DNA of 61,085 bases from an uncultured bacterium. GTDB lineage: Bacteria > CAZDME01 > JAYEMH01. The position numbers and the translations under genes were made by a program. Under the pieces are notes generated by a model. That model was not told the origin of the DNA, made no database searches, and worked only from the letters and a program-made list of their open reading frames with translations. Positions within the stretch are counted from its first letter, which is position 1, and every line of letters starts with the position of its first letter. Location of the stretch: positions 1 through 61,085 of the forward strand of contig CAZDME010000001.1 of assembly GCA_964506785.1 (NCBI GenBank), in the 5' to 3' direction. Below, piece by piece: positions 115 through 44,131 of the stretch.

Positions 115-1455
115 CTATTCATTATTAATTTTATTTTTTAATAAATCAACTAATTTTTGTAGATTTAAATCACTCTTTAATAAATGGTCAATTACGTTTA
201 CGGCATGTAACACTGTGGTATGGTCCCGTCCGCCGAAATACTCCCCTATTTCCGGGAGAGAACACTCGGTCAGCTGGCGGGTAAGAAACATAGCGACCTG
301 GCGGGGGAAAACCACTGTTTTTGTCCTCTTTTTTATTTTCATATCAGCAACGCTTAAATCAAAATACTCGCTAACTTTTCTCTGAATCAAATCGATAGAA
401 ATGTGTTTTTCCCCCTGGCTGTGAGAAAAAAGGTCTTTTAGTGTTTCTTCGGCCAGTTCAGTCGTTATCGGAGCCCCCACTAAACTGGCGTAAGCCACCA
501 GCCTGATTAAAGCGCCTTCCAATTCCCGGACATTAAAGCGAATTTTAGCTGCCAGAAAATTTGTTACCGCTTCGGGGATCGGCAGTGTTTCCTTTTCCGC
601 CTTCTTTCTCAAAATGGCAATTCGCGTTTCTAAATCAGGGGGTTGAATATCGGTAACCAAACCCCACTCAAAGCGCGAAATTAAGCGCTCTTCTAAATTA
701 GGAATTTCTTTTGGCGGAGAATCAGACGAAATAACAATTTGTTTATGTGCGTCGTAAAGGGTGTTAAAAGTGTGGAAAAATTCCTCCTGGGTGCTTTCTT
801 TACCAGATAGAAATTGAATATCATCCAATAGAAGAAGGTCAACGTTGCGGTATTTATTTCTAAACCTCAATGTAGTCTGGTTTTGAATAGAGTCGATCAA
901 CTGATTGGTAAATTTTTCGCAAGAGCCATAGAAAACACATAAATTCGGATTGGTTTTTTGAGCTAAATGGCCCACGGCTTGTAAAAGATGGGTTTTCCCC
1001 AGGCCAACGCCGCCATAGATAAAAAGAGGATTGTAGGCTTTACCCGGAGATTGTCCCACAGCTAAAGAGGCGGCATGGGCGAACCGGCTGCCGGGGCCAA
1101 CTACAAAATTTTCAAATTGGTATTTAGGATTCAGGTGGGTGTCTTCCCGGCTTAAAGAATTGGACCGGAGGGTATAGACCGGTTCTTTGTTCACAGAAGG
1201 CTCTTGGTTCGATTTTTTGATCGAAACCGAAACATGGCTTGTGGATAAACCACTTACCACGGAACAAACCTGCTCTAAATAGTGTTCCCTCACCCACTCC
1301 TCAATAAAAGAATTGGGGGCTTCCAAGACCAATTGAGAGTTATCGAGACTCAACGGCCTGAGGGGTTTAACCCATGTTTCAAAACTTTGCCGGGGGATAA
1401 TTTTTTCTAATTCAGACAAGGCTTGAGGCCACAGGGTATCGAGGGCGGAAGACAC
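115..1455 (-). CDS. dnaA: chromosomal replication initiator DnaA
   Basis: 446 aa. AAA+ Walker [12 protein letters not shown], Walker [11 protein letters not shown]-terminal DnaA-box-binding region ([11 protein letters not shown]). DnaA boxes on both sides. Confidence 0.97.
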
Positions 1456-1805
1456 AGGAAAACTCCTAACTATTTAAAACTAAGGGATTATATAGAAAAC
1501 CATCAGTTTGACCACAACAAATCCACAAATTATCTACAGATAACCTAAGGGTTTGAAATACTTAAAGTTGGAGAGGAAAAATGCTAAAACCTTCTCACCC
1601 TTAACCGAAGCGAAACACTAACCTTGGGGGGACGAAGAAATTACGGATATCTACAACCTCAATAAAATCAAGGAGTTATAAAAAACAAACCTGTCTATTT
1701 TCACTGTCCTCGAGAAAAAGTCCGTCTGCTCTGTTGAAACAAGGGTAAAGGGCTAAATTGTTTTATCCGGAGACTTCCCCACCTTGTCCAAAAAATACCC
1801 ACAGT

Positions 1806-1814
1806 TTATCCACA
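1806..1814 (+). promoter_or_regulatory. perfect DnaA box TTATCCACA
   Basis: Exact match to the consensus 9-mer, read directly. Confidence 0.8.
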
Positions 1815-1960
1815 TCCCCAAAAACCACCATAATTGGATACAGGTAAGAAAATTTTAACAAAAAAAATTTTTTTGTCAACTTTTTTTTGAAGTCTTTTAA
1901 ACAAAGAAGACTTCTAAAACTTTCGGTACGCCAAACAAGTGCGCGGGTAGACAGCCAAAA

Positions 1961-1976
1961 TGTTTCACGGGAAACA
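1961..1976. promoter_or_regulatory. parS-like site (15/16)
   Basis: TGTTTCACGGGAAACA, one mismatch to the palindrome TGTTTCACGTGAAACA found three times downstream. Confidence 0.65.
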
Positions 1977-1980
1977 GTCT

Positions 1981-2053
1981 GGCTCATAGCTGTTAGCTCT
2001 TGGTCGATAGTCAAAAAAACTCCATTCCTTTAACCATGAGCCATGAGCCAAAC
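1981..2053. repeat. family-A heptamer element (GCTCATA units, then reverse units)
   Basis: ggctcata gctgtta gctcttg gtcgata, then a spacer, then aaccatg agccatg agccaaa. Shares the 17-mer AACCATGAGCCATGAGC with 30838-30854. Confidence 0.8.
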
Positions 2054-2063
2054 AGGAAAGCCC

Positions 2064-2092
2064 TTGACAACCACCTCTAATTAACTTATAAT
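2064..2092 (+). promoter_or_regulatory. consensus sigma70-type promoter for rpmH operon
   Basis: TTGACA (2064-2069), 17-nt spacer, TATAAT (2087-2092). Confidence 0.8.
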
Positions 2093-2138
2093 CTCATAAT
2101 CTGATAATCCGAATAACCCAGTAACGGGAGAAAGCGCT

Positions 2139-2273
2139 TTGAAAAGGACTTTTCAACCATCAAAAATTAGCCGAAAGAGAACACATGGATTCCGCCGCCG
2201 CAAACAGACGAAGGGGGGGCGCAAGGTTTTAAATCGCCGACGGAAAAAAGGAAGAAAGCGCCTGGCGGCCTGA
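2139..2273 (+). CDS. rpmH: 50S ribosomal protein L34
   Basis: 45-codon ORF below the track cutoff. Hand translation [47 protein letters not shown] start, GGGAG at 2126-2130. Conserved rpmH-rnpA-yidD-yidC order. Confidence 0.85.
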
Positions 2274-2376
2274 TTTCCGAAAAAGAGCTGCCGTAAAAAG
2301 AGTAAAGGGCGGCTAAAAATTACACAGAGAGGTTAAAGGACGGAATCCTTAAGATATCATCGGGTGTAGATTTACG

Positions 2377-2781
2377 GTGAGTGAATTCAGACATACCTTT
2401 CCCAGGGAAGAAAAAATCCGAAAGAAAAAAGACAGGGACGCGCTTTTTAAAAAAGGGAAAGTTTGTTCCGGGTCTATCTTACAGCTTTTTTTTCTTCCCC
2501 GCGGCGATAATTTACGCAAGGCAGGCTTTGCTTTTAGCCGGGGGGTAACCCCGGCGACAAAACGCAATCGTCTGCGGCGGCTTCTTAGCGAAGCTTACCG
2601 GTTAAACAAGGAGAAGGTGGGTTTGGGGTATAATCTGCTTCTCAAGGTAAAAAAGACGGTTTCTGAGACATCAATGGCCCGTTTTGAAACGGAGTTTCTA
2701 ACCTTGGCCCGGAAAGCCGGGTTGCTCCGGAGCGCTAGGTTTGAGCCTGGTCAAAGACGGGAAAAAGAAAAGGCGGGGTAA
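2377..2781 (+). CDS. rnpA: ribonuclease P protein component
   Basis: 134 aa, basic, with RNR motif (ATKRNRLRRLLSEAYR). Sits between rpmH and yidD. Confidence 0.85.
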   Translation: MSEFRHTFPREEKIRKKKDRDALFKKGKVCSGSILQLFFLPRGDNLRKAGFAFSRGVTPATKRNRLRRLLSEAYRLNKEKVGLGYNLLLKVKKTVSETSMARFETEFLTLARKAGLLRSARFEPGQRREKEKAG

Positions 2782-2790
2782 ACCGCAGAT

Positions 2791-2806
2791 TGTTTCACGT
2801 GAAACA
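2791..2806. promoter_or_regulatory. parS site (perfect 16-bp palindrome)
   Basis: TGTTTCACGTGAAACA, matching the ParB-binding consensus TGTTNCACGTGAAACA. Confidence 0.85.
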
Positions 2807-2808
2807 GT

Positions 2809-2883
2809 GTAGCCGATAGCTCATCGGTCATGGCTCATAGCTAAAATTGGCTATTGGCTCGTAGCTTATGGTTGATAGCTAAT
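2809..2883. repeat. family-A heptamer array
   Basis: gtagccgata gctcatc ggtcatg gctcata gctaaaa ttggcta ttggctc gtagctt atggttg atagcta. Confidence 0.8.
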
Positions 2884-2894
2884 TAAGAAAAAAG

Positions 2895-3107
2895 ATGATA
2901 CAAGGGGTAGTACTGCTTATATTGCGCGTGTATAAAAAGGGGATATCCCCCTATCTGCCCCATCGCTGCCGTTTTTACCCTTCGTGTTCAGAGTATACCC
3001 GTCAAGCGATTAGTCGATATGGCTTATTACAGGGGATTTGGCTCGGAGGGTGGCGTCTTTTGCGCTGCGGGCCTTGGCATCCGGGTGGCTATGATCCGGT
3101 TAAATAG
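2895..3107 (+). CDS. yidD: membrane protein insertion efficiency factor YidD
   Basis: 70 aa. Signature ISPYLPHRCRFYPSCSEYTRQAISRYG. Confidence 0.9.
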   Translation: MIQGVVLLILRVYKKGISPYLPHRCRFYPSCSEYTRQAISRYGLLQGIWLGGWRLLRCGPWHPGGYDPVK

Positions 3108-3124
3108 CGCATCAAGAAGAGCCC

Positions 3125-3215
3125 GTAGATGATGGCTTCCATTAGCTGTTGGCTCAGAGTTCATCGCTCATGGCTAAAAGAAAACACCTTTTTTGCCATT
3201 AGCTAAGAGCCAGAA
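3125..3215. repeat. family-A heptamer array abutting parS
   Basis: gtagatg atggctt ccattag ctgttgg ctcagag ttcatcg ctcatgg ctaaaag, then gccatta gctaaga gccagaa immediately before parS. Confidence 0.75.
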
Positions 3216-3231
3216 TGTTTCACGTGAAACA
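3216..3231. promoter_or_regulatory. parS site (perfect)
   Basis: TGTTTCACGTGAAACA. Confidence 0.85.
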
Positions 3232-3329
3232 ATTTGGCGGCGGCACCTAGAATCCCATAAAAAAGTGGGTGACAAAAGGGCAAAAAAGCCCAAAAAAGCG
3301 AAAAGGACTGAAGAAAACAGGGGTAAATT

Positions 3330-4991
3330 ATGGAAAAAAGACTGCTATTAGCTATTGTTTTGTCGATTCTGGTTTTGGCTTCATTTCAGTATTATGCGGC
3401 AAAAATAGCCCCTCAGTCTGAACCGGGGCAGATAGAAACAAGAGAAAACAAAGCGGGCTTATCCCCTCAAATGACCACCGGGCCAACCGGCCATCCGGAC
3501 AAGCAGCTAACCGGGGGTGTTTCAGGGGAAACAATGCTTCCAGGGCAGGAAGCCTCTTTTCCGGTCATAGAAGCGAGGGAGTCTAAGGTAGAAACGAGTC
3601 TTTTTAAAGCGGCCATTAGTCTCAACGGGGCCGGAGTCGCCGGCTGGCAGCTCAAGGAATATAAAAATAAGGATGGCCAGCTGATCAATTTGTCCTGCCC
3701 CGAGAGGTTGGCCTCCAACCTTCCTCTATATATCCGTTGGGGATCGGTCTCTCCTTTAATCTTCCAGGGGAAGGAGTTGCTAAAATTGGGTTTTGAGCAG
3801 CCTCAAGGAGAGCTGTTTCTGCAAGCCCAGGCTGACCCCTGGAGGCTGGATAAGAAAATGGCCTTTTCCGACCAGGATTACCTCTTTTGGTTAGAACTTA
3901 GCTGGCAGAATCTTTCCTCAGAGACAAGAAAGCTGCCGGACTATTATCTGGTTTGTACCCCTGGTTTTGGGTTACAAGATAAAGAAAACCGGCAGTATGC
4001 TGAAGCCAAAGCCGGTTTTGTCCTTGGGGATACGCTGAAAGCGAAAAAATGGAAGATACACTCTTTAACCAGGAAGTTAATCAGAAGAAACGCCGAAACC
4101 GGTTCAATTACCCGTCTGGATAATGAGCTTCCCGGGATAGTCCGCTGGTTGGCCTATCGGGTCAAATATTTTACCATAATCATCAAGCCAGAGGAAGAGG
4201 CAAAAGGAATCCTTTTTTCCGGATTAGGCGAGGATGAAGCCCTCTGCCAGCTAAAAATGCCGGGAGAAGAAGTTCGCCCCGGAGAAACTTTTAATCAACG
4301 TTTTGCCGTTTATCTGGGGCCGGTAGATTATGATCAGCTTAAAAGAGCAAATCTGGGTTTAGAGGCAATTTTTGAGAGCGGCGGATTGGCTCCTTTGCGA
4401 AGATTGGTCATGGCTGTTCTTAAATTTTTCTATAAAATGGTAGGGAACTGGGGGGTGGCTATCATCCTTTTGACCATAGTTGCCAAGATTATTCTTCTTC
4501 CCCTGACACAAAAAAGCTTCCGGTCGATGGGGGAGATGCAGAAACTTCAGCCGCAGATAAACAGCCTGCGACAGGTCTATAAAGATAACCCGCAAAAACT
4601 GCAAAAAGAGATTATGGAGCTTTACCGCAGCCACAAGGTTAACCCCATGGGCGGCTGTTTTCCCATGCTTTTGCAAATGCCGGTTTTTATTGCTTTATTT
4701 ACCGCTTTAAGGAGCGCCATTGAGCTGCGACATGCCCCTTTTATCTTCTGGATAAAGGATCTCTCGGCCAAAGACCCCTTGTATGTTCTTCCTATTCTTA
4801 TGGGAGGGGTAATGGTTGCCCAGCAGAAAATGAGCCCGCAAGCCGATCCCCAGCAGGCTAAAATGGCCATGATTATGCCTATATTTTTCACCTTTCTTTT
4901 TATGAATTTTCCCAGCGGCCTGGTTTTATACTGGCTGGTCAATAGCTTTCTTTCTGTGGGGGAGCAGTGGTGGATAAAGAAAAAGAATTAA
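3330..4991 (+). CDS. yidC: membrane protein insertase YidC
   Basis: 553 aa. N-terminal TM helix, large periplasmic domain, C-terminal insertase core (GCFPMLLQMPVFIALF, PSGLVLYWLVNS). Confidence 0.93.
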   Translation: MEKRLLLAIVLSILVLASFQYYAAKIAPQSEPGQIETRENKAGLSPQMTTGPTGHPDKQLTGGVSGETMLPGQEASFPVIEARESKVETSLFKAAISLNGAGVAGWQLKEYKNKDGQLINLSCPERLASNLPLYIRWGSVSPLIFQGKELLKLGFEQPQGELFLQAQADPWRLDKKMAFSDQDYLFWLELSWQNLSSETRKLPDYYLVCTPGFGLQDKENRQYAEAKAGFVLGDTLKAKKWKIHSLTRKLIRRNAETGSITRLDNELPGIVRWLAYRVKYFTIIIKPEEEAKGILFSGLGEDEALCQLKMPGEEVRPGETFNQRFAVYLGPVDYDQLKRANLGLEAIFESGGLAPLRRLVMAVLKFFYKMVGNWGVAIILLTIVAKIILLPLTQKSFRSMGEMQKLQPQINSLRQVYKDNPQKLQKEIMELYRSHKVNPMGGCFPMLLQMPVFIALFTALRSAIELRHAPFIFWIKDLSAKDPLYVLPILMGGVMVAQQKMSPQADPQQAKMAMIMPIFFTFLFMNFPSGLVLYWLVNSFLSVGEQWWIKKKN

Positions 4992-4994
4992 ATT

Positions 4995-5057
4995 GACTCG
5001 TTGATTGTGGCTGATGGCTCATAGCTGATTGCTTCCGCCAAAAGAGCTATGAGCCAA
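4995..5057. repeat. family-A heptamer array abutting parS
   Basis: gactcgt tgattgt ggctgat ggctcat agctgat tgcttcc gccaaaa gagctat gagccaa. Confidence 0.75.
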
Positions 5058-5059
5058 AT

Positions 5060-5075
5060 TGTTTCACGTGAAACA
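5060..5075. promoter_or_regulatory. parS site (perfect)
   Basis: TGTTTCACGTGAAACA. Confidence 0.85.
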
Positions 5076-5077
5076 AT

Positions 5078-6487
5078 TTGGGAATGAGGGGTAAAGTGAG
5101 AAACTCCTATAGCGATACCATAGCTGCCATTGCCACGCCTTTAGGAGAGGGGGGTATTGGCATTGTCCGTTTGAGCGGCTCTCAGGCGGTATCTATTGCC
5201 GCCCGGATTTTCCGCTCGAGCCCCCGGCGAAATATTAATGAGTTACCCAGCCATAGCCTTCACTATGGGCAGGTGGTTTCCCGGACAAAGCCCATAGATG
5301 AAGGATTGCTGGCCATTATGAGGGCCCCCAATTCATATACCCGGGAAGATGTAGTTGAAATCCAGGCCCATGGCGGACCCATTCCTTTAGAGAAAATTCT
5401 CCGTTTGGTTATTGAGGAAGGTGCCCGGCCGGCTGAACCGGGAGAATTTACCCGGCGGGCTTTTCTTAACGGCCGGATGGACTTAGTCCAGGCTGAGGCG
5501 GTGGCCGATTTAATTCGGGCCCGGACAGAAGGCGCCTATGAAATTGCCCTGGGACAGCTTTCCGGCCGTTTTTCCGCGAAGGTAAAGGATTTACGGCAGC
5601 GGTTGATAAAGTGTTTAACCATAATCGAGGCAAGTATTGATTTCCCCGAGGAAAGCGGGTTGGGCCCGGGGAAATCGTTTCAGAAAACCCTTCGTCTTCT
5701 CGGTGACGAACTGCTTAAGCTGGAAGAAGGGGCGGAAAAAGGAAGAATCATCCGGGAAGGGATTAGGGCGGTTATTATCGGCCGGCCGAATGTGGGCAAA
5801 TCAAGTTTAATGAATGCCCTCTTAAAAGAAAAAAGGGTTATTGTTACCCATATACCAGGAACCACCCGCGATGTCGTTGAAGAAATAGTCAATATCGAGG
5901 GTATCCCTTTAAGGATTGCGGATACGGCCGGCTTGCGAAAAACCAGGAAGCTGATTGAAATTCAGGGTGTTGCCCAAAGCCGTTCTTATCTGGACAAGGC
6001 GGATTTAGTTATTATCGTTCTGGACGGGCACCAGAAACTGAAGAAAGAAGATTTGGATATTATAAAATTAGTCAAAGAGAAAGGGAAAAAAGCCATTGCG
6101 GCCGTCAATAAGAGCGATTTGCCGATTCGATTGGAAATGCCCCGGTTAAAGCGACATTTTCCCGCCGGGATGACTGTCCGGATTTCAGCCAAATGTCTTG
6201 CGGGGATTTCGAATTTCAACCGGAAAATCGCCCCCGCCCTGGGAATAAAAAAACCCGGGAACGGAAGCGAAAATATCTTAGCCAGCCGCTTAAGGCACCA
6301 GATTAGCTTGGGAAATGCCCGGAGTAATGTCCATAATGCCCTTCTGGCCTGGCAAAACGGACTATCTGCTGAGTTTATTGCCTTTGACCTTTGGCAGTCG
6401 GTTGAAGCCTTAGATGAAATCTTGGGGCTGAATTATAAAGAAGATTTATTGGATAAAATATTCCGAGAATTTTGCATCGGAAAATAA
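5078..6487 (+). CDS. mnmE: tRNA modification GTPase MnmE
   Basis: 469 aa. G-domain motifs GRPNVGKSSLMNAL, DTAGLR and NKSDL, and the C-terminal CIGK. Start uncertain (TTG 5078, ATG 5084 or GTG 5096). Confidence 0.92.
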   Translation: MGMRGKVRNSYSDTIAAIATPLGEGGIGIVRLSGSQAVSIAARIFRSSPRRNINELPSHSLHYGQVVSRTKPIDEGLLAIMRAPNSYTREDVVEIQAHGGPIPLEKILRLVIEEGARPAEPGEFTRRAFLNGRMDLVQAEAVADLIRARTEGAYEIALGQLSGRFSAKVKDLRQRLIKCLTIIEASIDFPEESGLGPGKSFQKTLRLLGDELLKLEEGAEKGRIIREGIRAVIIGRPNVGKSSLMNALLKEKRVIVTHIPGTTRDVVEEIVNIEGIPLRIADTAGLRKTRKLIEIQGVAQSRSYLDKADLVIIVLDGHQKLKKEDLDIIKLVKEKGKKAIAAVNKSDLPIRLEMPRLKRHFPAGMTVRISAKCLAGISNFNRKIAPALGIKKPGNGSENILASRLRHQISLGNARSNVHNALLAWQNGLSAEFIAFDLWQSVEALDEILGLNYKEDLLDKIFREFCIGK

Positions 6488-6490
6488 GCA

Positions 6491-6660
6491 AATTTAGACA
6501 TTTTTGAACAAGTCTGGACAATTTTGGATGCCTGAAATTGAGAAATATTTCTTGGAAGAAAGGTTTTTTCGACCCGAAGAAACTCGGGCGAGAGCAACGC
6601 TTAAAACGACAAAAATGGACATATTTTGGCATTTTTGTACATATTTGGACAATTACTGGC
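6491..6660 (+). repeat. 10-nt-phased TGGACA-like repeats (family D, two clusters)
   Basis: tttagacatt tttgaacaag tctggacaat tttggatgcc (6491-6530). aaatggacat attttggcat ttttgtacat atttggacaa ttactggcat (about 6613-6662). Confidence 0.7.
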
Positions 6661-6707
6661 ATGGTTTCCTGAGAATCTTTCTGTTCTTTGCATTTGCTGA
6701 AGTTGCC

Positions 6708-6757
6708 TGTGGATAACCTGGAGACATCTGTGGATAACTTAATACATTTGTGGACTG
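6708..6757 (-). promoter_or_regulatory. DnaA-box trio
   Basis: TGTGGATAA at 6708-6716 and 6729-6737 (both 9/9 as the reverse complement of TTATCCACA). TGTGGACTG at 6749-6757 (7/9). Box starts are spaced 21 and 20 nt apart. Confidence 0.75.
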
Positions 6758-6780
6758 GGGTAGGCAAGTCTCAACTTTTC

Positions 6781-6830
6781 TGGACAAATTTGGACACTTC
6801 TGGACAAATTTGGACACTTTTGAAGACATA
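6781..6830 (+). repeat. tandem 2 x 20-bp (4 x 10-bp) TGGACA repeat
   Basis: tggacaaatt tggacacttc tggacaaatt tggacacttt, followed by a degenerate fifth unit tgaagacata. Lies immediately upstream of parA. Confidence 0.85.
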
Positions 6831-6847
6831 AAAGGGAGTTTTTTGTT

Positions 6848-7612
6848 GTGTCAAAAGTTTTTGCGGTAGCCAATCAAAAAGGGGGCGTTGGCAAAACCAC
6901 CACCGTTTTAGGCTTGGCGGCTTGTTTTGCTTTTGCCGGGAAAAAGGTTTTGGTGGTTGATTTTGACCCTCAGGGTCAGGCGACTTCTGGCCTGGGGCTG
7001 GAAAAGGATAAAATTTCCCGGACAGTTTATTCCTGTCTTTTTGAAATAACGCGGCCTTTGGCCCTGGCGCAGGAGACAAAGGTAAAAAACCTCAAAATTA
7101 TCCCTTCTAATATTGAGCTGGCCGGGGCTGAGGTGGAGTTGGTTGAAGTGCCGCAGAGGGAGGAACGCCTGCGGCGTTTAATCGAAAAAATCCGCCAGCG
7201 CTTTGACTTTGTTTTAATTGACTGCCCGCCATCTCTGGGGATATTGACGGTCAATGCTCTGGTGGCCGCCGATAGTGTTATTATTCCCGTCCAGTGCGAA
7301 TATTATGCCTTGGAAGGATTGAGCCAATTGGTAAACTCCATCAACCTGATCCAGGCCGGGCTTAATCCGCATCTATCAATCGAGGGAGTCGTTTTAACCA
7401 TGCATGATGTGCGCATTAACCTTTCCGCACAGGTAATAGATGAAGTTAGAAACTTTTTTCAGGAGAAGGTTTTTAAAGCGGTTGTTCCGCGCAATGTCCG
7501 CCTCGCCGAAGCACCCAGTTTTGGCCAGCCAATTATTCAATATGACCTCCGCTCAGCCGGGGCCGAAGCTTACCTGCGCCTGGCCAAGGAAATTTTAAAA
7601 AGATACAGATAA
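6848..7612 (+). CDS. parA: ParA/Soj chromosome partitioning ATPase
   Basis: 254 aa. GTG start, deviant Walker A KGGVGKTT, followed by parB. Confidence 0.93.
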   Translation: MSKVFAVANQKGGVGKTTTVLGLAACFAFAGKKVLVVDFDPQGQATSGLGLEKDKISRTVYSCLFEITRPLALAQETKVKNLKIIPSNIELAGAEVELVEVPQREERLRRLIEKIRQRFDFVLIDCPPSLGILTVNALVAADSVIIPVQCEYYALEGLSQLVNSINLIQAGLNPHLSIEGVVLTMHDVRINLSAQVIDEVRNFFQEKVFKAVVPRNVRLAEAPSFGQPIIQYDLRSAGAEAYLRLAKEILKRYR

Positions 7613-7810: not shown

Positions 7811-8653
7811 ATGGCTAGACAGGTTTTAGGACGGGGATTAAGTGCGCTTATCTCCCGAGAAAGCGCCGAAAAAAGGGAGGAGGTTCGCCAATTAAATATT
7901 AAAGATGTGGTTGCCAGTCAGTTTCAACCGCGCCAGGATTTTGACTCCAGACAACTTAATGAGTTGGTGACTTCCATTAAAGAAAAAGGGGTAATTCAGC
8001 CGATTCTAGTCCGTCCTCTGGGTGACAAATATGAATTAGTGGCCGGGGAACGGCGATGGCGGGCTACCAAAGAACTGGGCTGGAAAAAAATTCCGGCTAT
8101 GTTGAAAAATGTTTCCGATACCGAGGCCTTGGAGTTAACCTTAATTGAAAATCTGCAAAGGCAGGATTTAAATCCTATTGAGGAAGCCAAGGCCTATGAA
8201 CGTTTGCTCAAGGACTTTAAGCTCACCCAGGAAAAATTAGCCAGGCAAATTGGTAAAGAGCGGGTTTCTGTGGCTAACACCTTGAGACTCCTTAAATTGC
8301 CCCAGGCGATTAAAGAGGAGATTTCCCGGGGACGCCTTTCGGCGGGTCAGGCTCGGCCCTTGCTGTCTTTAAAGAATTCAGCTAAGCAAGAGGAGCTTGG
8401 AAAAAAAATTATAAAAAAGGGGTTGTCGGCCAGAGAAGTAGAACAAGTCGTTCAAAAAATGCTTTCTTCGGTGCGTTTTCAGCCGCGGCGGTTTAAAAGG
8501 AACACCCAGCTCCTGGAAATTGAGGAGAAATTGCGTCATATCTTTGGCACCCAGGTACGCCTTAGACAAAAGGGAAATAAAGGAAAGATTGAAATAGAAT
8601 TCTATTCTGCCGAGGATTTGGATAGGATTCTGGAAGTAATCAGACCGAAGTAG
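7811..8653 (+). CDS. parB: ParB/Spo0J partition protein
   Basis: ORF 7769-8653 trimmed to ATG 7811 (AGGAGG at 7799-7804). N-terminus MARQVLGRGLSALI, ParB box GERRWRA, HTH region. Confidence 0.92.
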   Translation: MARQVLGRGLSALISRESAEKREEVRQLNIKDVVASQFQPRQDFDSRQLNELVTSIKEKGVIQPILVRPLGDKYELVAGERRWRATKELGWKKIPAMLKNVSDTEALELTLIENLQRQDLNPIEEAKAYERLLKDFKLTQEKLARQIGKERVSVANTLRLLKLPQAIKEEISRGRLSAGQARPLLSLKNSAKQEELGKKIIKKGLSAREVEQVVQKMLSSVRFQPRRFKRNTQLLEIEEKLRHIFGTQVRLRQKGNKGKIEIEFYSAEDLDRILEVIRPK

Positions 8654-8661
8654 AAAATAGG

Positions 8662-9615
8662 ATGAATTTATTAACGGTGCCCGCGAGTAGTTTAAAAAAA
8701 GAACATCCGGTAAAAATACCAATTCCTGATTGGCTGGTGAAAGAGGTTAGCTCCAAGCGTAATTTGGGTAGTCTGCCCAAAATTTTAAAGGAGGCTGGTC
8801 TTCGTACTGTTTGCCAGGCGGCCCGCTGTCCCAATATCGGCGAATGTTTTTCCCGGGGGACGGCCACCTTTTTAATTCTGGGCGATATTTGCCGCCGCCA
8901 ATGTCGTTTTTGTAGCATAAAAAAAAGGCCTTCCGGGTATTTACCCGTAGATAAGGATGAACCGGCACGGATCGCTCAAACAGTTCAGCAGCTCGGGCTT
9001 GGATATGTGGTGGTTACCTCAGTCAGCCGTGATGACCTGCCTGACGGAGGAGCCGAACATTTTGCCCGGACAATCAGAAAGATAAAAAGCCGCACCCCGG
9101 GGATAACGGTAGAGGTTTTAATCCCTGATTTTTCTGGCCATCTCGAGGCATTAAAAACGGTGGTTAAAGAAAGGCCCGAGGTAATTAATCATAATTTAGA
9201 GACGGTCGAATCTCTTTATCCGAAGGTTCGCCCGCAGGCGGATTATAAGCGCTCACTGGAGTTACTTAGAAGGATAAAGGGTCTGGATGCCCGGATTGTT
9301 ACCAAGTCAGGTTTAATCCTGGGGTTAGGAGAAGAAAAAGAAGAAATCCAAAAAGCCCTTAATGATTTACAGCAGGCTCAGGCGGATATTTTAACCTTAG
9401 GTCAGTATTTACAGCCGACGGTCAGGGAACTGGCTGTAGAGAAATATCTTACCCGGCAGGAATTTGCTTTTTGGCAGAAAGCAGCCGAGGCATTGGGTTT
9501 TCTTTTTGTCGCTTCGGGAAACCTGGTTCGCAGCTCATACAGGGCAGAAGAAGCCTATAAAAGAGCGTTATCCCGTTCGTCGTTATCTCGTTTTCAGGGT
9601 AACGATATAACGTGA
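8662..9615 (+). CDS. lipA: lipoyl synthase
   Basis: 317 aa. Cys clusters CQAARCPNIGEC and radical-SAM CRRQCRFC. The last ~15 codons are encoded by a family-B array. Confidence 0.93.
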   Translation: MNLLTVPASSLKKEHPVKIPIPDWLVKEVSSKRNLGSLPKILKEAGLRTVCQAARCPNIGECFSRGTATFLILGDICRRQCRFCSIKKRPSGYLPVDKDEPARIAQTVQQLGLGYVVVTSVSRDDLPDGGAEHFARTIRKIKSRTPGITVEVLIPDFSGHLEALKTVVKERPEVINHNLETVESLYPKVRPQADYKRSLELLRRIKGLDARIVTKSGLILGLGEEKEEIQKALNDLQQAQADILTLGQYLQPTVRELAVEKYLTRQEFAFWQKAAEALGFLFVASGNLVRSSYRAEEAYKRALSRSSLSRFQGNDIT

Positions 9616-9698: not shown

Positions 9699-10199
9699 AT
9701 GAAAGGATTACGAATCTACAAATATGGAGAGCCGATATTACGCAAAAAATGTGCCCAAATAAAAGAAGTTACTGATGAAGTAGGAGAAACTCTTGCGGCG
9801 ATGAGCCGAACGATGTATGAATCCCAGGGGGTAGGATTAGCCGCGCCCCAGATTGGGCTGGGGAAACGCTTGATTGTTGTTGATATTGGCGATGGCCTCT
9901 GGGAATTGATGAATCCCAGAATTGTCTCCCGGCGGGGAGAAACTATTTCCCTGGAGGGATGTCTGAGTCTGCCAGGGATTACCGTAAATGTCAAACGTGC
10001 CAAGGAGGTTACTGTAGAGGCTTTAGAGAAAAAAGGGGAGAAGATAATGCTCGAAGCCAAAGGCCTATTTGCTTTCGCCCTGCAGCACGAAATTGACCAT
10101 CTGGACGGTGTTTTGATTATTGACTATCTTGAGAAAAAAGAGAAAAAGGCAGTTGAGGAAAAGTTAAAAAAGTGGTTAAAAGAAACACCAAAAATGTAG
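9699..10199 (+). CDS. def: peptide deformylase
   Basis: 166 aa. Motifs GVGLAAPQIG, EGCLS and QHEIDHL. Confidence 0.95.
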   Translation: MKGLRIYKYGEPILRKKCAQIKEVTDEVGETLAAMSRTMYESQGVGLAAPQIGLGKRLIVVDIGDGLWELMNPRIVSRRGETISLEGCLSLPGITVNVKRAKEVTVEALEKKGEKIMLEAKGLFAFALQHEIDHLDGVLIIDYLEKKEKKAVEEKLKKWLKETPKM

Positions 10200-10996
10200 G
10201 ACACAGAGAAAAACGGAGCCGGGTAAATATAATCCTCTTTGGGCCGGTTTCTTCCCGGCGCCTGGGGAAATCCTTAGGCATTAATCTTATCCCGCCCAAA
10301 ACCTGCTCTTTGGATTGTATCTATTGCCAGCTTGGCAGCACCCCCAAAACCTCGGTAAAGCGTTATTCTTATCTTTCCGCGAACGAAGTCGAGACAAACC
10401 TAAAAAGATTTTTGGCCAAAGGAGGACGGGCCGATTATCTTACTCTTTCCGGGGGGGGGGAACCCACTCTTAACGCTCAGATTGGAAAGATTATCAGGCG
10501 GATTAAAACAATAAGCAGACTGCCGGTAGCCGTACTTACCAACGCCACCCTTTTTACTTCCCCTAAGGTGCGGCGAGAATTGCTGGCGGCGGATTTAGTT
10601 TTGCCTTCTCTGGATGCCGCCCGCCAAGCAACCTTTAAAAAAATTAATCGCCCCCATCGCAGATTAAAGATTAAAAATATCATCCAGGGCTTGCAACTCT
10701 TTCGCCGTCAATTTAAGGGGAAATTGTGGCTGGAAATTATGTTGGTAAGAAATATAAACGACTCAAAAAAAGAGCTTGAAGCCTTAAACAAAGCCGTATT
10801 GGCCATTAAACCGGATAAGATTCAGTTAAATACCGTGGTCAGGGAGCCGGCGGAAAAATTTGCCCATCCACTGACCGTCAGCCAACTCCAGAAAACAAAG
10901 AAATTTTTTGGCGACCGCTGTGAAATAATCAGCGGGCGCAAAGATAAAAGGAAAAGAATGCTTAAAGCCCTCAAGCCAAATTATCACACTTCGTAA
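10172..10996 (+). CDS. radical SAM protein (function unknown)
   Basis: 274 aa. CSLDCIYC (CxxxCxxC) cluster. Overlaps def by 28 nt. Its last codons and TAA stop lie inside the REP hairpin. Confidence 0.8.
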   Translation: MVKRNTKNVGHREKRSRVNIILFGPVSSRRLGKSLGINLIPPKTCSLDCIYCQLGSTPKTSVKRYSYLSANEVETNLKRFLAKGGRADYLTLSGGGEPTLNAQIGKIIRRIKTISRLPVAVLTNATLFTSPKVRRELLAADLVLPSLDAARQATFKKINRPHRRLKIKNIIQGLQLFRRQFKGKLWLEIMLVRNINDSKKELEALNKAVLAIKPDKIQLNTVVREPAEKFAHPLTVSQLQKTKKFFGDRCEIISGRKDKRKRMLKALKPNYHTS

Positions 10997-11007
10997 GTGT
11001 GATAATT
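10979..11007. repeat. REP hairpin (RAYT-flanking, loop CGT)
   Basis: aattatcacactt-cgt-aagtgtgataatt, a 13-bp perfect stem. Confidence 0.9.
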
Positions 11008-11030
11008 TTCCAAAAAAAAGGCAACTAAAA

Positions 11031-11723
11031 ATGAAGAGCAAGGATATTAAAAAATTCGGCAGCACATTAGTTACGGGAGAAATTTACCATATTTTTAGTA
11101 AAAGCATCGCTGGTTTTAGAATATTTAAGCGGAAAGCGGAATTTAAAAGGATAAAAGAGATGCTTCAATATTATGTTTTTGAAAAACCTTCCATAAGATT
11201 TTCTTATTTTCTCCGGGCGCCTCAGAAAGAAAAAGAGAAATTCGTAGAAGCCGTTTCTAAAAATAATATTCAGAATAAAGGAAAAATTGTTAACATAGTT
11301 GCCTACTGTATTATGCCTACCCATATTCACTTAGTTCTGCAGCCTCTCAAGGAAAGGGGGATTTCCATATTTATGAAAAATCTTCTTGATAGCTACACGC
11401 GTTATTTTAATGTCAAATATAAAAGAAAAGGGCCTCTTTGGGAAGGAAGATTTAAAAGAGTTTGGGTCGGGTCAGAAAATCAACTCCTTCATCTTACCAG
11501 ATATATTCATTTAAACCCGGTTACTGCGGGGTTAGTTAAAAGGCCAGAGGAATGGTTTGCATCCTCCTTTAACGAATATATAGAAGGTGATAGAAAGGAT
11601 AAGCTTTGTAGATATGATGCACTTTTAAAGATTTCTCCAGAGTCCTATAAAAAATTTGTAAAAGAAAGAATTTTTTATCAGAAACAACTTGCAAAAATTA
11701 AGGAATTGACCTTTGATGTATAA
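11031..11723 (+). CDS. REP-associated tyrosine transposase (IS200/IS605 Y1 family, RAYT-like)
   Basis: 230 aa. HUH motif in CIMPTHIHLVLQP and catalytic-Tyr motif LTRYIHLNPV. Flanked by REP hairpins. Confidence 0.85.
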   Translation: MKSKDIKKFGSTLVTGEIYHIFSKSIAGFRIFKRKAEFKRIKEMLQYYVFEKPSIRFSYFLRAPQKEKEKFVEAVSKNNIQNKGKIVNIVAYCIMPTHIHLVLQPLKERGISIFMKNLLDSYTRYFNVKYKRKGPLWEGRFKRVWVGSENQLLHLTRYIHLNPVTAGLVKRPEEWFASSFNEYIEGDRKDKLCRYDALLKISPESYKKFVKERIFYQKQLAKIKELTFDV

Positions 11724-11728
11724 CCATT

Positions 11729-11753
11729 TTATCACACTTCGTAAGTGTGATAA
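11729..11753. repeat. REP hairpin (RAYT-flanking, loop CGT)
   Basis: ttatcacactt-cgt-aagtgtgataa, an 11-bp perfect stem. Confidence 0.9.
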
Positions 11754-16573: not shown

Positions 16574-16602
16574 TTTTATCACACTTACGAAGTGTGATAA
16601 AA
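16574..16602. repeat. REP hairpin (dispersed copy, loop ACG)
   Basis: ttttatcacactt-acg-aagtgtgataaaa, a 13-bp perfect stem. Confidence 0.9.
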
Positions 16603-29810: not shown

Positions 29811-30788
29811 ATGAATAAAAAAATGGAATTTATCTCCTGCCGCGATATTTATGCATCGACGCTTATTGATTTAGGAAAGACCAATAAAGATATTGTTGTT
29901 CTTGATGCCGATTTGGCTAAATCTACCCGCACCTTAAAATTTGGGAAAGTTTTTCCTGATCGGTTTTTTGACTTAGGTGTGGCTGAACAAAATATGATGG
30001 GGGTAGCGGCTGGTTTAGCGGCTTCCGGCAAAACAGCCTTCGCCAGCTCTTTTGCTATGTTTGCCTCGGGCCGGGCCTGGGAGCAAATTCGCAATACCAT
30101 AGCTTATTCTAACCTTAATGTAAAAATTTTTGTTACCCACGGAGGCATATCCGTTGGCGGCGATGGTTCCAGCCACCAATCCTTAGAAGATATCGCCTTA
30201 ATGCGGGTTTTGCCGCAAATGAGGGTACTTGTTCCTTTAGACGGTTATGAAACGGAAAAAGCCGTCCGTCTGGCCGCCAAATCTCCCGGACCTTTCTATA
30301 TCAGGGTCAGCCGGGAGAAGGTGCCGCAATTGACCAAAAAAGGGGATAAGTTCATTTTGGGGAAAAGCAGTTTACTTCATCCTGGAGGAGATGTGACCAT
30401 TATTGCCTATGGGTTAATGGCCTTCGAGGGTTTAAAGGCAGAGAAAATTTTAGCCCAGGAAGGTATTAGTGTCCGCCTCATTAATATGTCAACTATAAAA
30501 CCCATTGATGAGGAGGCAATTCTCCAGGCCGCCGAAGAGACCGGATTAATTGTTACCGCCGAGGAGCATTCAATAATTGGCGGTTTGGGAAGCGCGGTGG
30601 CTGAGTTTCTATCAGAAAAAAATCCCACCCCGGTCATTCGTATCGGCACCCGGGATAGATTTGGCCAGTCCGGCGCGCCGCGGGATCTTTTTGCCGAATA
30701 TCATTTACTGGCCAAGGATATCGTTGCCGCCGTAAAAAAAGGATTGAAAATCAAAACTTCCGCCAAAAAGAGCGGCGTAGAGGCTTAG
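29811..30788 (+). CDS. transketolase, C-terminal (pyrimidine-binding) subunit
   Basis: 325 aa. FDLGVAEQNMMGVAAGLA. Follows the N-terminal subunit. Confidence 0.93.
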   Translation: MNKKMEFISCRDIYASTLIDLGKTNKDIVVLDADLAKSTRTLKFGKVFPDRFFDLGVAEQNMMGVAAGLAASGKTAFASSFAMFASGRAWEQIRNTIAYSNLNVKIFVTHGGISVGGDGSSHQSLEDIALMRVLPQMRVLVPLDGYETEKAVRLAAKSPGPFYIRVSREKVPQLTKKGDKFILGKSSLLHPGGDVTIIAYGLMAFEGLKAEKILAQEGISVRLINMSTIKPIDEEAILQAAEETGLIVTAEEHSIIGGLGSAVAEFLSEKNPTPVIRIGTRDRFGQSGAPRDLFAEYHLLAKDIVAAVKKGLKIKTSAKKSGVEA

Positions 30789-30865
30789 CTGATTGCTCAT
30801 AGCTCTTAGTGGATAACTAACTAATCTTTTTTCGTCTAACCATGAGCCATGAGCAAAGAGCAAAC
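30789..30865. repeat. family-A heptamer element, homologous to 1981-2053
   Basis: ctgattgctcatagctcttagtgg, then a spacer, then taaccatgagccatgagcaaagagcaaac. Confidence 0.8.
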
Positions 30866-30885
30866 AGCCAGGGGGAGTTAGGAGA

Positions 30886-38877: not shown

Positions 38878-38883
38878 GGAAGT

Positions 38884-40500
38884 ATGAAGCCAATATCGGA
38901 GATTGCCAAAAACTGGGGAGTAAAGGAAGAAGAGCTTAAATGCTTCGGCCCTTATATGGCCAAGGTTTCCCTGAATCTTTTGAAGCGTTTAAAGAATAGC
39001 CCTGAGGGAAATTTAATTATTATCTCGGCGATGACTCCAACCAATCAGGGAGAAGGGAAAACTACCACTACTATTGGTTTGGCCCAGGCCTTGAATCGGT
39101 TAGGCAAAAAAGCTATTCCAACCCTGCGAGAGCCGTCACTCGGCCCTTTTATGGGCCTAAAAGGAGGGGCAACCGGCGGCGGCGCCGCTGAGGTGCTGCC
39201 TAAGGATGAGATAAATCTGCATTTTACCGGAGATATTCACGCCGTCGGGGCCGCCCACAATTTGTTGGCTGCCCTGGTTGATAATTCAATTTATCGGGGA
39301 AACAATTTAAAATTAAACCCGGAGCGCCTTTTTTGGCCCCGGGTGATTGATACCAGTGACCGGGGTCTCCGAGAAATTTTATTAAGTTCAAGCGGCAAAA
39401 TCGCCCAGAATCCTTATAAAACCTCTTTTGAAATCACCGCCGCTTCCGAAATTATGGCGGTTTTATGTTTATCTGAAAATTTCTCCGAATTAAAAAGAAA
39501 AATAGGAGAGATTATCGTTGGACTGGATTTTTCTGAAAAGCCCGTCAGGGTAAAAGACCTGGGGGCAGAAGGAGCGCTATCCCTTCTTTTAAAAGATGCC
39601 CTGATGCCTAATTTGGTTCAGACCAGTGAGTTTGGTCCGGCCTTTATCCACGGCGGCCCATTTGCTAATATTGCCCATGGCTGTAACAGTATCCTGGCGA
39701 TAAAGATGGCTTTGAAATTAGCCGATTTTGTCGTTACCGAGACTGGGTTTGCCGTCGATTTGGGTGCGGAAAAGTTTATCCATCTGGTTTCATCCCCCTT
39801 TAATCTTTCTCCCCGGGCTTTAGTCATTGTCGCCAGTCTCCGCGCCTTGAAAATGCATGGCGGAGAAAAGGCTGGTTTTAAATTAGGGTTGGACAATTTA
39901 TCCAAGCAGATAGAAAATGGAGAAAAACTGGGGTTTCGGGTGGTTGTTGCCCTAAACAGGTTTAAAGAGGATTTGCCTCAAGAAATCAAATATGTAGAAG
40001 ATTTTTTTGCTAAGAAGCAAATCTCTTTAGCTGTTTCTGAGGTCTGGCAAAAAGGAGGAAGAGGCGGCGAGGATTTGGCAAAAAAGATTTTAGAGGTAGT
40101 TAACCGCTCTGGGGGAAATAAAACCTTCAAGGGTTTATATACCCATAACAATTCTTTTAAAGAAAAGGTAGAGGCGATTGCTGTTGAAATTTACGGGGCA
40201 AGTGGGGTAGGTTATTCTGAGGAGGCAGAAAAAGATATCGCTTTTCTTAAGAAAAATAAATTGGACCAGATGCCGGTTTGTCTGGCCAAGACACACAAGT
40301 CGCTTTCTGATAATCCTAATCTTTTAGGCAGGCCCAAGGGTTTTAAAATTAAAGTTGAAAAAATTAAGCCGGCTGCCGGAGCGGGTTTTTTAGTTGTATA
40401 TTGCGGTAAAATTCTTACTTTGCCGGGGCTCCCCCTTTATCCCCGGGCGATGCGAATGGATTTGGGGGATGATGGAGAAATCAAAGAGAAAAATGGTTGA
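38884..40500 (+). CDS. fhs: formate--tetrahydrofolate ligase
   Basis: ORF 38869-40500 trimmed to ATG 38884. P-loop PTNQGEGKTTTTIGL. Confidence 0.95.
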   Translation: MKPISEIAKNWGVKEEELKCFGPYMAKVSLNLLKRLKNSPEGNLIIISAMTPTNQGEGKTTTTIGLAQALNRLGKKAIPTLREPSLGPFMGLKGGATGGGAAEVLPKDEINLHFTGDIHAVGAAHNLLAALVDNSIYRGNNLKLNPERLFWPRVIDTSDRGLREILLSSSGKIAQNPYKTSFEITAASEIMAVLCLSENFSELKRKIGEIIVGLDFSEKPVRVKDLGAEGALSLLLKDALMPNLVQTSEFGPAFIHGGPFANIAHGCNSILAIKMALKLADFVVTETGFAVDLGAEKFIHLVSSPFNLSPRALVIVASLRALKMHGGEKAGFKLGLDNLSKQIENGEKLGFRVVVALNRFKEDLPQEIKYVEDFFAKKQISLAVSEVWQKGGRGGEDLAKKILEVVNRSGGNKTFKGLYTHNNSFKEKVEAIAVEIYGASGVGYSEEAEKDIAFLKKNKLDQMPVCLAKTHKSLSDNPNLLGRPKGFKIKVEKIKPAAGAGFLVVYCGKILTLPGLPLYPRAMRMDLGDDGEIKEKNG

Positions 40501-42271: not shown

Positions 42272-44041
42272 ATGGTGGATAGAAAAACGGGAAGAAAACA
42301 CCTGAGGCATTATAAAAGCTTGGGAGAGCTGCTGGTAGAGATGCAGATTGTCAATGAAAAGCAGCTGGAAGAGTTGATGCTTGAGCAGAGAAGAACCGGA
42401 GAATTGCTCGGGCGGATTGTCGTCCGCCAGGGATTAGCCAGCGAAAAGGAAATTATGGATGCTTTGGCGGCGCAAACCGATATGCCGGTGGTAACTTTAA
42501 GCCGTTTGAAAATTAACCCAAAGATTATTAATAAAATCTCTCCCAGTTTAGCCAGGATTTATAAAGTTGTGCCCATTAGAGAGGAAGGCAAAGTTTTGCT
42601 TGTTGCTCTTTCTGACCCTTTTAATACCCAGGTTCTTGATGATTTGCGTTTTATTCTGAATAGTGAAGTGAGGGGAGCTATCGCCAGTGATAAAGATATT
42701 GACCAGGCCTTGCAGAAATATTACGGAAAGGAAACAGAAAGCCTGGAGGTATTGCTGCAAAAAATGGAGTCTACTCCCTTGATGCAAAAGGAATTAGAAA
42801 AGGTGAGTGAACCCGATATTGCCAGTCTTCAGGAATTAGCCCGGGAAGCCCCAATTGTTAAACTGGTAAATCTGGTTTTGATTCAAGCGGTTAAGGACCG
42901 GGCCAGTGATATCCACTTTGAACCCTATGAAGACATCTTTAGAATCCGCTATCGTTTGGACGGTCTTCTTTATGAAATGACTCCTCCGCCGGCTCGCCTC
43001 GGTTTAGGTATTATCTCCCGTCTTAAAGTAATGGCTGATTTGGATATTGCCGAGCGAAGACTTCCTCAAGACGGCCGCATGGAGATAAATGTTGAAGGCA
43101 AGCGCATTGATATCCGAGTATCAACCCTGCCTACCGCTTTTGGTGAAAGTGTGGTTTTGCGGATTCTCGACCGCAGTCTGGTGATGCTTTCTTTAAACGA
43201 AATTGGGCTTTTACCTGATAGCTTAGCGGTTATAGAGGGGCAGATTAAACGTCCCCAGGGAATGGTTTTAGTGACCGGGCCGACTGGCTGCGGAAAAACC
43301 ACTACCCTGTATTCAATTTTAAAAAGAGTAAATGAGCCGGGTTATAAAATTATTACTACTGAGGATCCAGTTGAATATACTATTACCGGTGTCATTCAGG
43401 TTCCGATTAAACCGCAGATTAAACTGAATTTTTCCACTTGCCTAAGGCATATTTTACGCCAGGATCCCGATATCATCATGGTTGGTGAAATTCGTGACCA
43501 GGCCACAGCAGAGATTGCCATTCATGCCGCTCTTACCGGACATTTGGTTCTCAGTACCCTGCATACCAACGATGCTCCAGAAACGATTACCCGTCTTATC
43601 GATATGGGAGTGGAACCTTTTTTAGTTACCTCGACCCTGCAGATAATTATTGCCCAGCGCCTGGTAAGAATTTTATGCCCTGAGTGTAAGGAAAGTTATC
43701 AAGCCAGCCCGAAAGATTTAGTTGCTCTGGATATTAACCTGGATGAGGTCACTTCTAAAAACTTTGAACTGGATGAAGAGGGGAAATTAATTTTATATCG
43801 TCCCAAAGGCTGTCCTTTATGCCGCCAGATTGGATATCGCGGACGAACGGGGATATTTGAAATATTGACCCTTAATGATGAAATCCGGGAGTTGATTGTT
43901 AACCGGGCTTCAGCCGAGGAAATTCGAAAAATTGCCAGTCAGGCCGGGATGAGGAATTTAAAACTTGATGGTTTGCAAAAAGCATTGCAGGGAATAACCA
44001 GTTTAGAAGAGGTCCTCAGGGAAACGCAAACCTTTATATAG
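42272..44041 (+). CDS. GspE/PilB-family secretion ATPase (paralog 2)
   Basis: 589 aa. T2SSE_N domain, Walker A GPTGCGKTTT, tetracysteine CPEC...CPLC. Confidence 0.9.
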   Translation: MVDRKTGRKHLRHYKSLGELLVEMQIVNEKQLEELMLEQRRTGELLGRIVVRQGLASEKEIMDALAAQTDMPVVTLSRLKINPKIINKISPSLARIYKVVPIREEGKVLLVALSDPFNTQVLDDLRFILNSEVRGAIASDKDIDQALQKYYGKETESLEVLLQKMESTPLMQKELEKVSEPDIASLQELAREAPIVKLVNLVLIQAVKDRASDIHFEPYEDIFRIRYRLDGLLYEMTPPPARLGLGIISRLKVMADLDIAERRLPQDGRMEINVEGKRIDIRVSTLPTAFGESVVLRILDRSLVMLSLNEIGLLPDSLAVIEGQIKRPQGMVLVTGPTGCGKTTTLYSILKRVNEPGYKIITTEDPVEYTITGVIQVPIKPQIKLNFSTCLRHILRQDPDIIMVGEIRDQATAEIAIHAALTGHLVLSTLHTNDAPETITRLIDMGVEPFLVTSTLQIIIAQRLVRILCPECKESYQASPKDLVALDINLDEVTSKNFELDEEGKLILYRPKGCPLCRQIGYRGRTGIFEILTLNDEIRELIVNRASAEEIRKIASQAGMRNLKLDGLQKALQGITSLEEVLRETQTFI

Positions 44042-44131
44042 CTCATAGCTGATAGCTCATCGTTCATAGAAAACCCATGAGCTAAGAGCCAGGGGCTATA
44101 AACTAGAAGAGCAAGTCAGGAGAGAGAAGCC
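44041..44131 (+). repeat. family-A heptamer tiling of the whole intergenic gap
   Basis: gctcata gctgata gctcatc gttcata gaaaacc catgagc taagagc caggggc tataaac tagaaga gcaagtc aggagag agaagcc, then ggg and ATG 44135. Confidence 0.85.

Follow-up and report, generated by a model that had tools for sequence, protein, structure and literature searches.

Why should every centromere site of a cluster touch a copy of the same intergenic repeat? The question is raised by a 61,085-nt stretch of DNA from an uncultured bacterium (contig CAZDME010000001.1, positions 1 to 61,085; hereafter the window), in which four sites matching parS, the palindrome bound by the partition protein ParB, lie close to the parAB genes, each beside an array of GCTCATA-type heptamers (family A). 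An earlier note on this DNA had offered two explanations: that parS was mobilised as part of a repeat element, or that the arrays contribute to ParB loading or spreading. We found that the association of this one repeat family with parS exceeds chance and is probably trivial in mechanistic terms. In our judgement the probable, though by no means assured, explanation is that A elements settled secondarily beside older parS sites in very short gaps, through local spread, insertion next to palindromes, or both.

A scan of the whole window placed TGTTTCACGTGAAACA exactly at 2791-2806 (site 2), 3216-3231 (site 3) and 5060-5075 (site 4), and TGTTTCACGGGAAACA, one mismatch from canonical parS, at 1961-1976 (site 1), as the earlier note had reported. 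When up to 2 mismatches were allowed, the window yielded five matches, compared with 0.01 expected from shuffled sequence. The fifth match, which was not on the earlier list, is a degenerate parS-like palindrome, TGTTTCAGGGGAAACA, at 3518-3533 inside the yidC coding region; its two mismatches alter the centre and leave the arms intact. At the same threshold, no further parS was found in the other 56 kb of the window or in about 8 kb beyond dnaA that independent assemblies add on its left side. Site 1 lies in the 683-nt divergent promoter region between dnaA and rpmH, site 2 lies 9 nt past the rnpA stop codon, and site 3 occupies the yidD-yidC gap. Site 4, which is 20 nt upstream of the GTG start of mnmE, forms the core of a 28-bp perfect palindrome, CCAAAT-parS-ATTTGG (5054-5081).

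The setting of these sites is that of a chromosomal partition locus. The parS consensus is the 16-bp palindrome TGTTNCACGTGAAACA, and several sites grouped near oriC are the usual arrangement (PMC7022226); the origin-proximal clustering is thus expected, as had been anticipated. Pfam matches bear out the identity of the surrounding genes, which run in the order dnaA (115-1455, minus strand), then rpmH (2139-2273), rnpA (2377-2781), yidD (2895-3107), yidC (3330-4991) and mnmE (5096-6487), then parA and parB. parA (6848-7612, plus strand; Pfam AAA_31, CbiA and ParA), which encodes a Walker-type ATPase, is 1.8-4.9 kb downstream of the four sites. parB (7811-8653, plus strand) encodes a cognate ParB of 280 aa with an N-terminal CTPase box (ParB_N, with a GERR motif), a helix-turn-helix (HTH_ParB) and a dimerisation domain (ParB_C), all at E <= 1e-7. 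Perfect DnaA boxes are present at 1806, 6708 and 6729, and genes diverge from the dnaA-rpmH gap. Two other, independent assemblies from this organism (Logan, ENA) show the same arrangement at 99.8-99.9 % identity, and the layout is therefore not an assembly artefact. The positions are also conserved: sites 2 and 3 are kept in three to six relatives, and sites 1 and 4 in one each. Judged from sequence and position, the four palindromes are to be regarded as genuine ParB-binding centromere sites that form an old and evolutionarily dynamic origin-proximal cluster; the cluster as such is ordinary.

What lies beside these sites, the "family-A arrays", is a discrete hairpin element, non-coding and present in dispersed copies. 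Using a detector based on word density, which gave zero false positives in shuffled sequence and replaced a strict 7-nt chaining detector that had caught only half of the copies, we found exactly six GCTCATA-type regions in the 61 kb, all of them intergenic. Four adjoin parS at a distance of 0-4 nt, which upholds the observation that each site abuts such an array, and two have no parS. The element is 65-100 nt long and follows a common plan: a left arm of [C/G]AT[A/G]GCT heptamers, a loop, and a complementary right arm that ends in …GAGCTA(A/T)GAGCC. Element 1 (1977-2056), with the left arm GGCTCAT AGCTGTT AGCTCTT GGTCGAT, a loop and the right arm CCATGAG CCATGAG CCAAACA, stops just short of an rpmH promoter (TTGACA-17-TATAAT, 2064-2092). 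Element 2 (2807-2884) consists of about ten direct heptamers (AGCCGAT AGCTCAT CGGTCAT GGCTCAT AGCT…) and fills the gap up to the yidD start. Elements 3 (3126-3215) and 4 (4994-5059) are hairpins located between the stop codons of yidD and yidC, respectively, and parS, where their right arms end in …AGCTAAGAGCCAGAA and …GAGCTATGAGCCAAAT. The two parS-free copies lie at 30783-30872 (element 5), where the TAG stop of the upstream gene is inside the first unit, and at 44030-44102 (element 6), which overlaps the TAG stop of its upstream gene.

Most copies fold better than expected: four of the six beat 199-200 of 200 shuffles (z <= -2.9, reaching -3.7 for element 3 and -3.8 for element 6), and the remaining two gave weaker values (z of -0.95 and -1.85). 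Tandem Repeats Finder reported a period of 7 (ATAGCTC) at 2816-2842 and 44038-44069. RNAalifold, applied to seven copies, found 11 conserved pairs, one of them with a compensatory change; this gives no evidence of selection on an RNA structure, and the conservation sits in the sequence. A search of positions 1456-7000 against Rfam found no family match even at E <= 1, and a scan for intrinsic terminators found none at the A elements. Element 1 lies between two divergent promoters, and an A element thus need not be transcribed. In four copies (30786-30788, 44039-44041, 3105-3107, and 9559-9561 of the related locus L010), the first unit of the element (TAGCT or TAGCG) provides the TAG stop of the upstream gene or overlaps it, which suggests that A elements insert at stop codons or over them. 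In L010 yidD ends in such an element-borne TAG, and in its sister L007 it ends in TAA.

The copies are related to one another irrespective of parS. Element 1 and element 5, the parS-free copy at 30.8 kb, can be aligned over their full length, including the loop. For the parS-linked element of L010, a locus whose YidC is 68 % identical to that of the window, the closest counterpart is element 6, the parS-free copy at 44 kb (45/54 nt across the apex). Outside the window, A-like copies occur in two other contigs; one of these copies, without parS, came from four JGI metagenome loci (about 42 kb) retrieved with the repetitive extragenic palindrome (REP) of the window as a genome tag; a profile search of about 1.4 Mb of loci from other phyla found no copy. 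The earlier note had also drawn attention to a conserved AGCCAnA(A/T) immediately 5' of parS. We found this motif as described (cagccaaaa, gagccagaa, gagccaaat), but it is not specific to parS: it corresponds to the heptamer with which the right arm of the A element ends (…GAGCC followed by A-rich sequence), and the terminus …(G/C)AGCC|A is common to the parS-linked copies and both parS-free copies of the window. In L006, AGCCAAAAA stands beside a parS at which no A element was detected, so that an origin of AGCCAnA in an ancestral flank is possible.

In related genomes, most orthologous parS sites stand without the element. Relatives were found by an alignment-based scan (a single-protein scan of GTDB genomes gave no match); searches with YidC and MnmE gave a few relatives at 59-69 % identity, followed by a drop to 51 % (MnmE) and about 39 % (YidC). 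The closest named relative is a metagenome-assembled genome of Candidatus Ratteibacteria, L010. At the position of site 1, L010 has a perfect parS in its dnaA-rpmH gap with no A element, and the same gap in L006 and L007 contains no parS. The counterpart of site 2 is present at the rnpA 3' end in L006, L007/L008 and L010, again without the element. The counterpart of site 3 is present in all six relatives that cover the spot (L004, L005, L006, L007, L009 and L010), and L010 is the only one in which any parS has an A element; its sister L007, with a YidC 92.5 % identical, is bare there. At the position of site 4, L140 carries a bare parS at the junction of the yidC stop and the mnmE start, arranged as TAA, 1 nt and parS, such that parS overlaps the mnmE start and encodes the first residues of MnmE. 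No parS was found at this position in nine other loci (L004-L007, L009, L010, L138, L139 and L141), and element 4 was not found in any relative compared. Some of the yidC/mnmE overlap seen in relatives may be an artefact of start-codon calling. The A element is absent beside the orthologous parS in most relatives.

Across these loci the flanks of parS are A/T-rich and palindromic (AAAT-parS-ATTT), giving a conserved unit of about 24 bp, and ParB is 72-80 % identical in the relatives compared and always 280 aa long. The number of parS sites ranges from 1 to 4 per recovered locus, the loci often covering only part of the region. Repeats of other families adjoin parS in relatives, namely GACGAGA and a 105-nt repeat in L010 and AACCGG in L009. 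The 105-nt repeat is present in two copies (7983-8087 and 9784-9888; 91 % identity), of which the first starts inside a perfect parS (GAAACA|ATTT) and the second follows a sequence that is not parS, CACAGAAACA; the repeat either carries half of a parS or inserts 3' of GAAACA. Insertion 3' of GAAACA, considered as a general target-site rule, fits this repeat and does not fit the parS-free A copies, and we rejected it.

These comparisons bear first on the proposal that parS was mobilised. In its full form, an A element and parS would make up one unit, with the junction …GAGCCAAAT|TGTTTCAC, that spreads to further intergenic positions through transposition or through gene conversion starting from homology between A elements or parS sites, and the centromere copy number would grow by hitch-hiking. 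The junctions lend this some weight, as all four in the window and that of L010 are in one heptamer phase (GCTRTGA-GYYRRAN|parS), and sites 3 and 4 are built alike, with ATTTGG as the far-side flank of both. The yidC-mnmE gap with its element and parS is missing in the nine loci named above, the parS at site 1 of L010 lies within an indel of about 210 nt relative to L007, and the 105-nt repeat of L010 begins inside parS, its second copy also having GAAACAATTT. Against this, each site of the window has an A-less parS counterpart in some relative, 3/8 known A elements have no parS, and the parS-linked elements are not one another's closest kin: that of site 1 pairs with the 30.8-kb copy, and those of site 4 and of L010 pair with the 44-kb copy. 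A constant junction and heptamer phase are expected of any element with a defined end, and a scan of viral contigs for parS joined to an A element gave 0 matches. We also considered site 4 as an insertion that brought its own parS and downgraded this candidate, as L140 has a bare parS at the same junction. We conclude that mobilisation of parS within a repeat element is not well supported and, as an account of this locus, unlikely; hitch-hiking of parS may be a minor process and is not required, site 4, absent from most relatives, being a possible case of it.

The same bare sites weigh on the second proposal, in which the hairpin arrays would be cis-acting parts of the centromere that shape the loading of the ParB-CTP clamp, block or direct its sliding, or insulate parS from operon transcription. 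Such a role would suit the strict abutment at all four sites, the position of all four elements within the span from parS 1 to parS 4, the conservation of the element between genomes whose YidC proteins are only 68 % identical, and an apparently separate co-occurrence at site 3 of L010. We found no support for it in the relatives, where a ParB of the same length and 72-80 % identity goes with the same 16-mer and no A element (bare orthologous parS in L004, L006, L007 and L140), and where other repeat families occupy the same place. Nor do the elements behave as accessories in the window: some exist without parS, and sites 1 and 2 have the element downstream whereas sites 3 and 4 have it upstream, with no consistent polarity relative to transcription or replication. 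Their 7-bp period is unlike the helical repeat of DNA, they carry no terminator signature, and the half-parS heptamer GTTTCAC is not enriched. We therefore regard a functional contribution of the arrays to partition as very improbable.

The arrays might also have arisen where they stand, growing beside parS by slippage and quasipalindrome template switching from an ancestral flank, (A/T)TTTGGC, and not by insertion at all. An AGCCAAA/TTTGGCT flank does accompany array-less parS in L006 and at site 2 of L010, inverted GCCAAA/TTTGGC units are present on both sides of parS, and the array at site 2 is purely direct. What makes this the least credible of the accounts considered here is that homologous copies align colinearly, with their loops, both across 29 kb and across genomes, which indicates copying and not independent local growth; in addition, there are A copies far from any parS.

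Is there, then, anything to explain beyond chance? A elements could land at random in repeat-rich intergenic DNA and strike the four parS gaps by accident or in a single local burst. In favour of this, about half of the intergenic regions contain a repeat of some kind, and in three of the four gaps there is too little room for an insertion not to touch parS; families also cluster locally in relatives, as with GTCTATG/ATAGACA in two neighbouring gaps of L010. The numbers point the other way: four of the six A elements lie in the four parS gaps among 39 intergenic regions (Fisher p = 1.8e-4, the sites not being independent), and by gap length the enrichment gives about 5e-3, which is our own estimate and likewise treats as independent events that are not so if elements spread locally. 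In addition, the 4-nt abutment at site 1 is not forced by lack of space, and 21.6 kb of L010 contain a single A-like element, which is also beside parS. We consider pure coincidence quite unlikely.

We favour, as the more probable course of events, secondary settlement of A elements beside existing parS sites. We infer that parS came first and that A elements later inserted or expanded in the gaps of the rpmH-rnpA-yidD-yidC-mnmE block. Three of the four gaps would ancestrally have held barely more than a stop codon, parS and the next start codon, much as in L007, where 8 nt separate the yidD stop from parS and about 25 nt separate parS from the yidC ATG; with gaps consisting of nearly nothing but parS, any inserted element must abut it. 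Selection presumably keeps the 24-bp extended site (AAAT-parS-ATTT) intact, so that an element could approach only to the edge of that site, which would produce the constant 4-nt spacing from the 16-mer. The presence of one family in all four gaps would most likely reflect local spread between neighbouring gaps, insertion beside palindromes in the manner of REPINs (hairpin-forming inverted doublets of REPs), or both; REPINs insert into or next to existing palindromic elements (PMC3116915), and this behaviour, together with the local clustering of families in L010, favours secondary colonisation. Presence and absence are plain in two comparisons, L010 with an element against L007 with none and the window against the bare parS of L140, from which the direction, gain or loss, would have to be deduced.

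Several observations weigh against this explanation. The specificity of family A at parS (the Fisher p of 1.8e-4) exceeds what compactness predicts, and the more numerous AACGAGAT arrays occur in none of the parS gaps. At site 1 the element begins 4 nt from parS although the gap offers 683 nt, a placement with a chance of about 0.02, and in the roomy site-1 gap of L010 another repeat also begins exactly at GAAACA|ATTT. Site 4 is missing from most relatives, and ancestry there consequently needs several losses. The sample comprises about 110 kb of this or a sibling genome, and in it we identified no transposase or mechanism that moves A elements. A tentative alternative, which we hold to be unlikely, is that A-type hairpins and other repeats of the lineage home to the flanks of ParB-bound parS, guided by the palindrome or by the nucleoprotein complex, and occasionally carry a whole or half parS; bacterial centromere sites would then owe changes in their number and spacing to selfish repeats.

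How does this locus compare with known systems? Chromosomal ParABS clusters include parS1-4 of P. aeruginosa, 10 sites in C. glutamicum and 8 origin-domain sites in B. subtilis (PMC7022226). The cluster in the window resembles them in its 16-bp palindrome, its several copies a few kb from oriC and parAB, its canonical ParB and the intergenic location of some sites. It differs in that every site touches one hairpin-repeat family and in that site number and flanks change fast between related genomes via repeat-filled indels. We found no paper on parS embedded in, or targeted by, a repeat family. Plasmid centromeres made of direct iterons, such as sopC and parC, are themselves bound by the partition protein. 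They share with the present locus the placement of repeat arrays at a partition site, but the site for ParB in the window is the canonical palindrome, and no evidence connects the heptamers with ParB; as noted, orthologous parS sites do without the repeats.

In behaviour, the A element works like a hairpin repeat of the REPIN type or of the type of the cyanobacterial short tandemly repeated repetitive (STRR) sequences, an analogy that we draw without assigning it to either group. Like REPs and REPINs (PMC3116915), A elements are extragenic, multi-copy, conserved in sequence, about 70-100 nt long and arranged as hairpin-forming inverted doublets; REPINs tend to sit by existing palindromes, and the window has a gene resembling the REP-associated tyrosine transposases (RAYTs) with REPs of its own. 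Unlike in a REPIN, that gene is flanked not by A elements but by another palindrome, ATCACACTT-ACG-AAGTGTGAT, and for this reason the A element is not a REPIN; unlike in a REP, its arms are heptamer-periodic arrays rather than a single repeat. With STRR sequences (PMC2670836) it has in common tandem 7-bp units, intergenic location, the capacity to form hairpins and the occurrence of many unit families per genome. It differs from them in its host phylum, Candidatus Ratteibacteria, in its two inverted arms with a conserved terminus and in the concentration of one family at parS. A miniature inverted-repeat transposable element might be considered as well; the right terminus, …GAGCC, is conserved, but the inspected flanks showed no target-site duplication and no related autonomous insertion sequence was found. 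The units of the A element differ from those of STRR1-3, and it does not belong to a cyanobacterial STRR family; small dispersed palindromic repeats embedded in tandem heptamer repeats were reportedly described by Elhai et al. in 2008.

The intergenic DNA of this lineage is rich in repeats altogether. About half of the intergenic regions of the window carry 7-8-nt arrays or REPs, the families being A (7-mers), the much commoner 8-mer AACGAGAT, the 7-mer AACAGTT and the REP palindrome, and all relatives hold heptamer arrays of many unit sequences. Taken together, these repeats make the palindrome-plus-array layout a general habit of the lineage. The likeness of the parS layout to the REP element, which the earlier note had pointed out, holds good: inverted REP copies of the form ATCACACTT-CGT-AAGTGTGAT, at 10983 and 11731, flank the RAYT-like gene for a Y1 transposase (11031-11723; PF01797, Y1_Tnp; the whole spanning 10983-11751), and at other positions in the window REP leads into a fixed linker and then (AACGAGAT)n arrays. 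This oriented composite, GCCATTTT-REP-AAAAnnGnnTTTTCTGCTTTTAA-(AACGAGAT)n, occurs at 16578, 19649, 27226, 38774 and 45446 and also in L090 and L091; in the inverted composite, CGTTATCT arrays come before REP. The 8-mer arrays often stand directly 5' of start codons, and a syntenic Y1_Tnp gene is present in L139 (7069-7776).

Further repeats and features accompany the par region and the rest of the window. Iterons with a ten-bp period (TGGACAAATT-like) occupy the mnmE-parA gap at 6489-6528 and 6781-6816, adjoining the two perfect DnaA boxes at 6708 and 6729. They recur in five of the six relatives scanned (L004 at 3544, L005 at 3951, L007 at 13019, L009 at 3541 and L010 at 13137), with none reported in L006, and may bind a protein as iterons belonging either to the par promoter or to the origin. 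An GGACAAAT motif is also found beside parS in L004, L007 and L010. Elsewhere in the window there is a c-di-GMP-I riboswitch aptamer at 50702-50784 (RF01051, 59.8 bits), and a long, apparently intergenic stretch at 38880-40393 could, on visual inspection of the sequence, be a plus-strand gene for formate-tetrahydrofolate ligase. Intergenic GCTCAT-type heptamer arrays, some of them hairpin-like, are also present in phage-like IMG/VR contigs (L094, 10235-10302; L119, 499-545 and 2148-2258; L135, 1904-1949), with no parS nearby; the largest open reading frames of L119 resemble phage structural genes by eye. A scan of viral contigs seeded with a GCTCAT dimer gave 44 matches, near the estimated chance count, about 15 of which are real (GCTCATR)n arrays from phage-like contigs, none with parS, and these matches show only that such heptamer arrays exist elsewhere.

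By itself, the parS cluster confirms textbook biology in a barely studied candidate phylum. The Ratteibacteria have unusually dense and diverse intergenic tandem arrays of 7-8-nt units, often attached to palindromes, in a manner that recalls the STRR sequences of cyanobacteria. One such array family is concentrated beside centromere sites, and the number and context of parS shift between related genomes via repeat-filled indels. Should repeats indeed target ParB-bound DNA or carry parS along, centromere evolution would have a new route, and the partition locus would be shown to offer a selfish element a safe refuge. Otherwise, the pattern illustrates how apparent functional associations can emerge from the compactness of intergenic regions.

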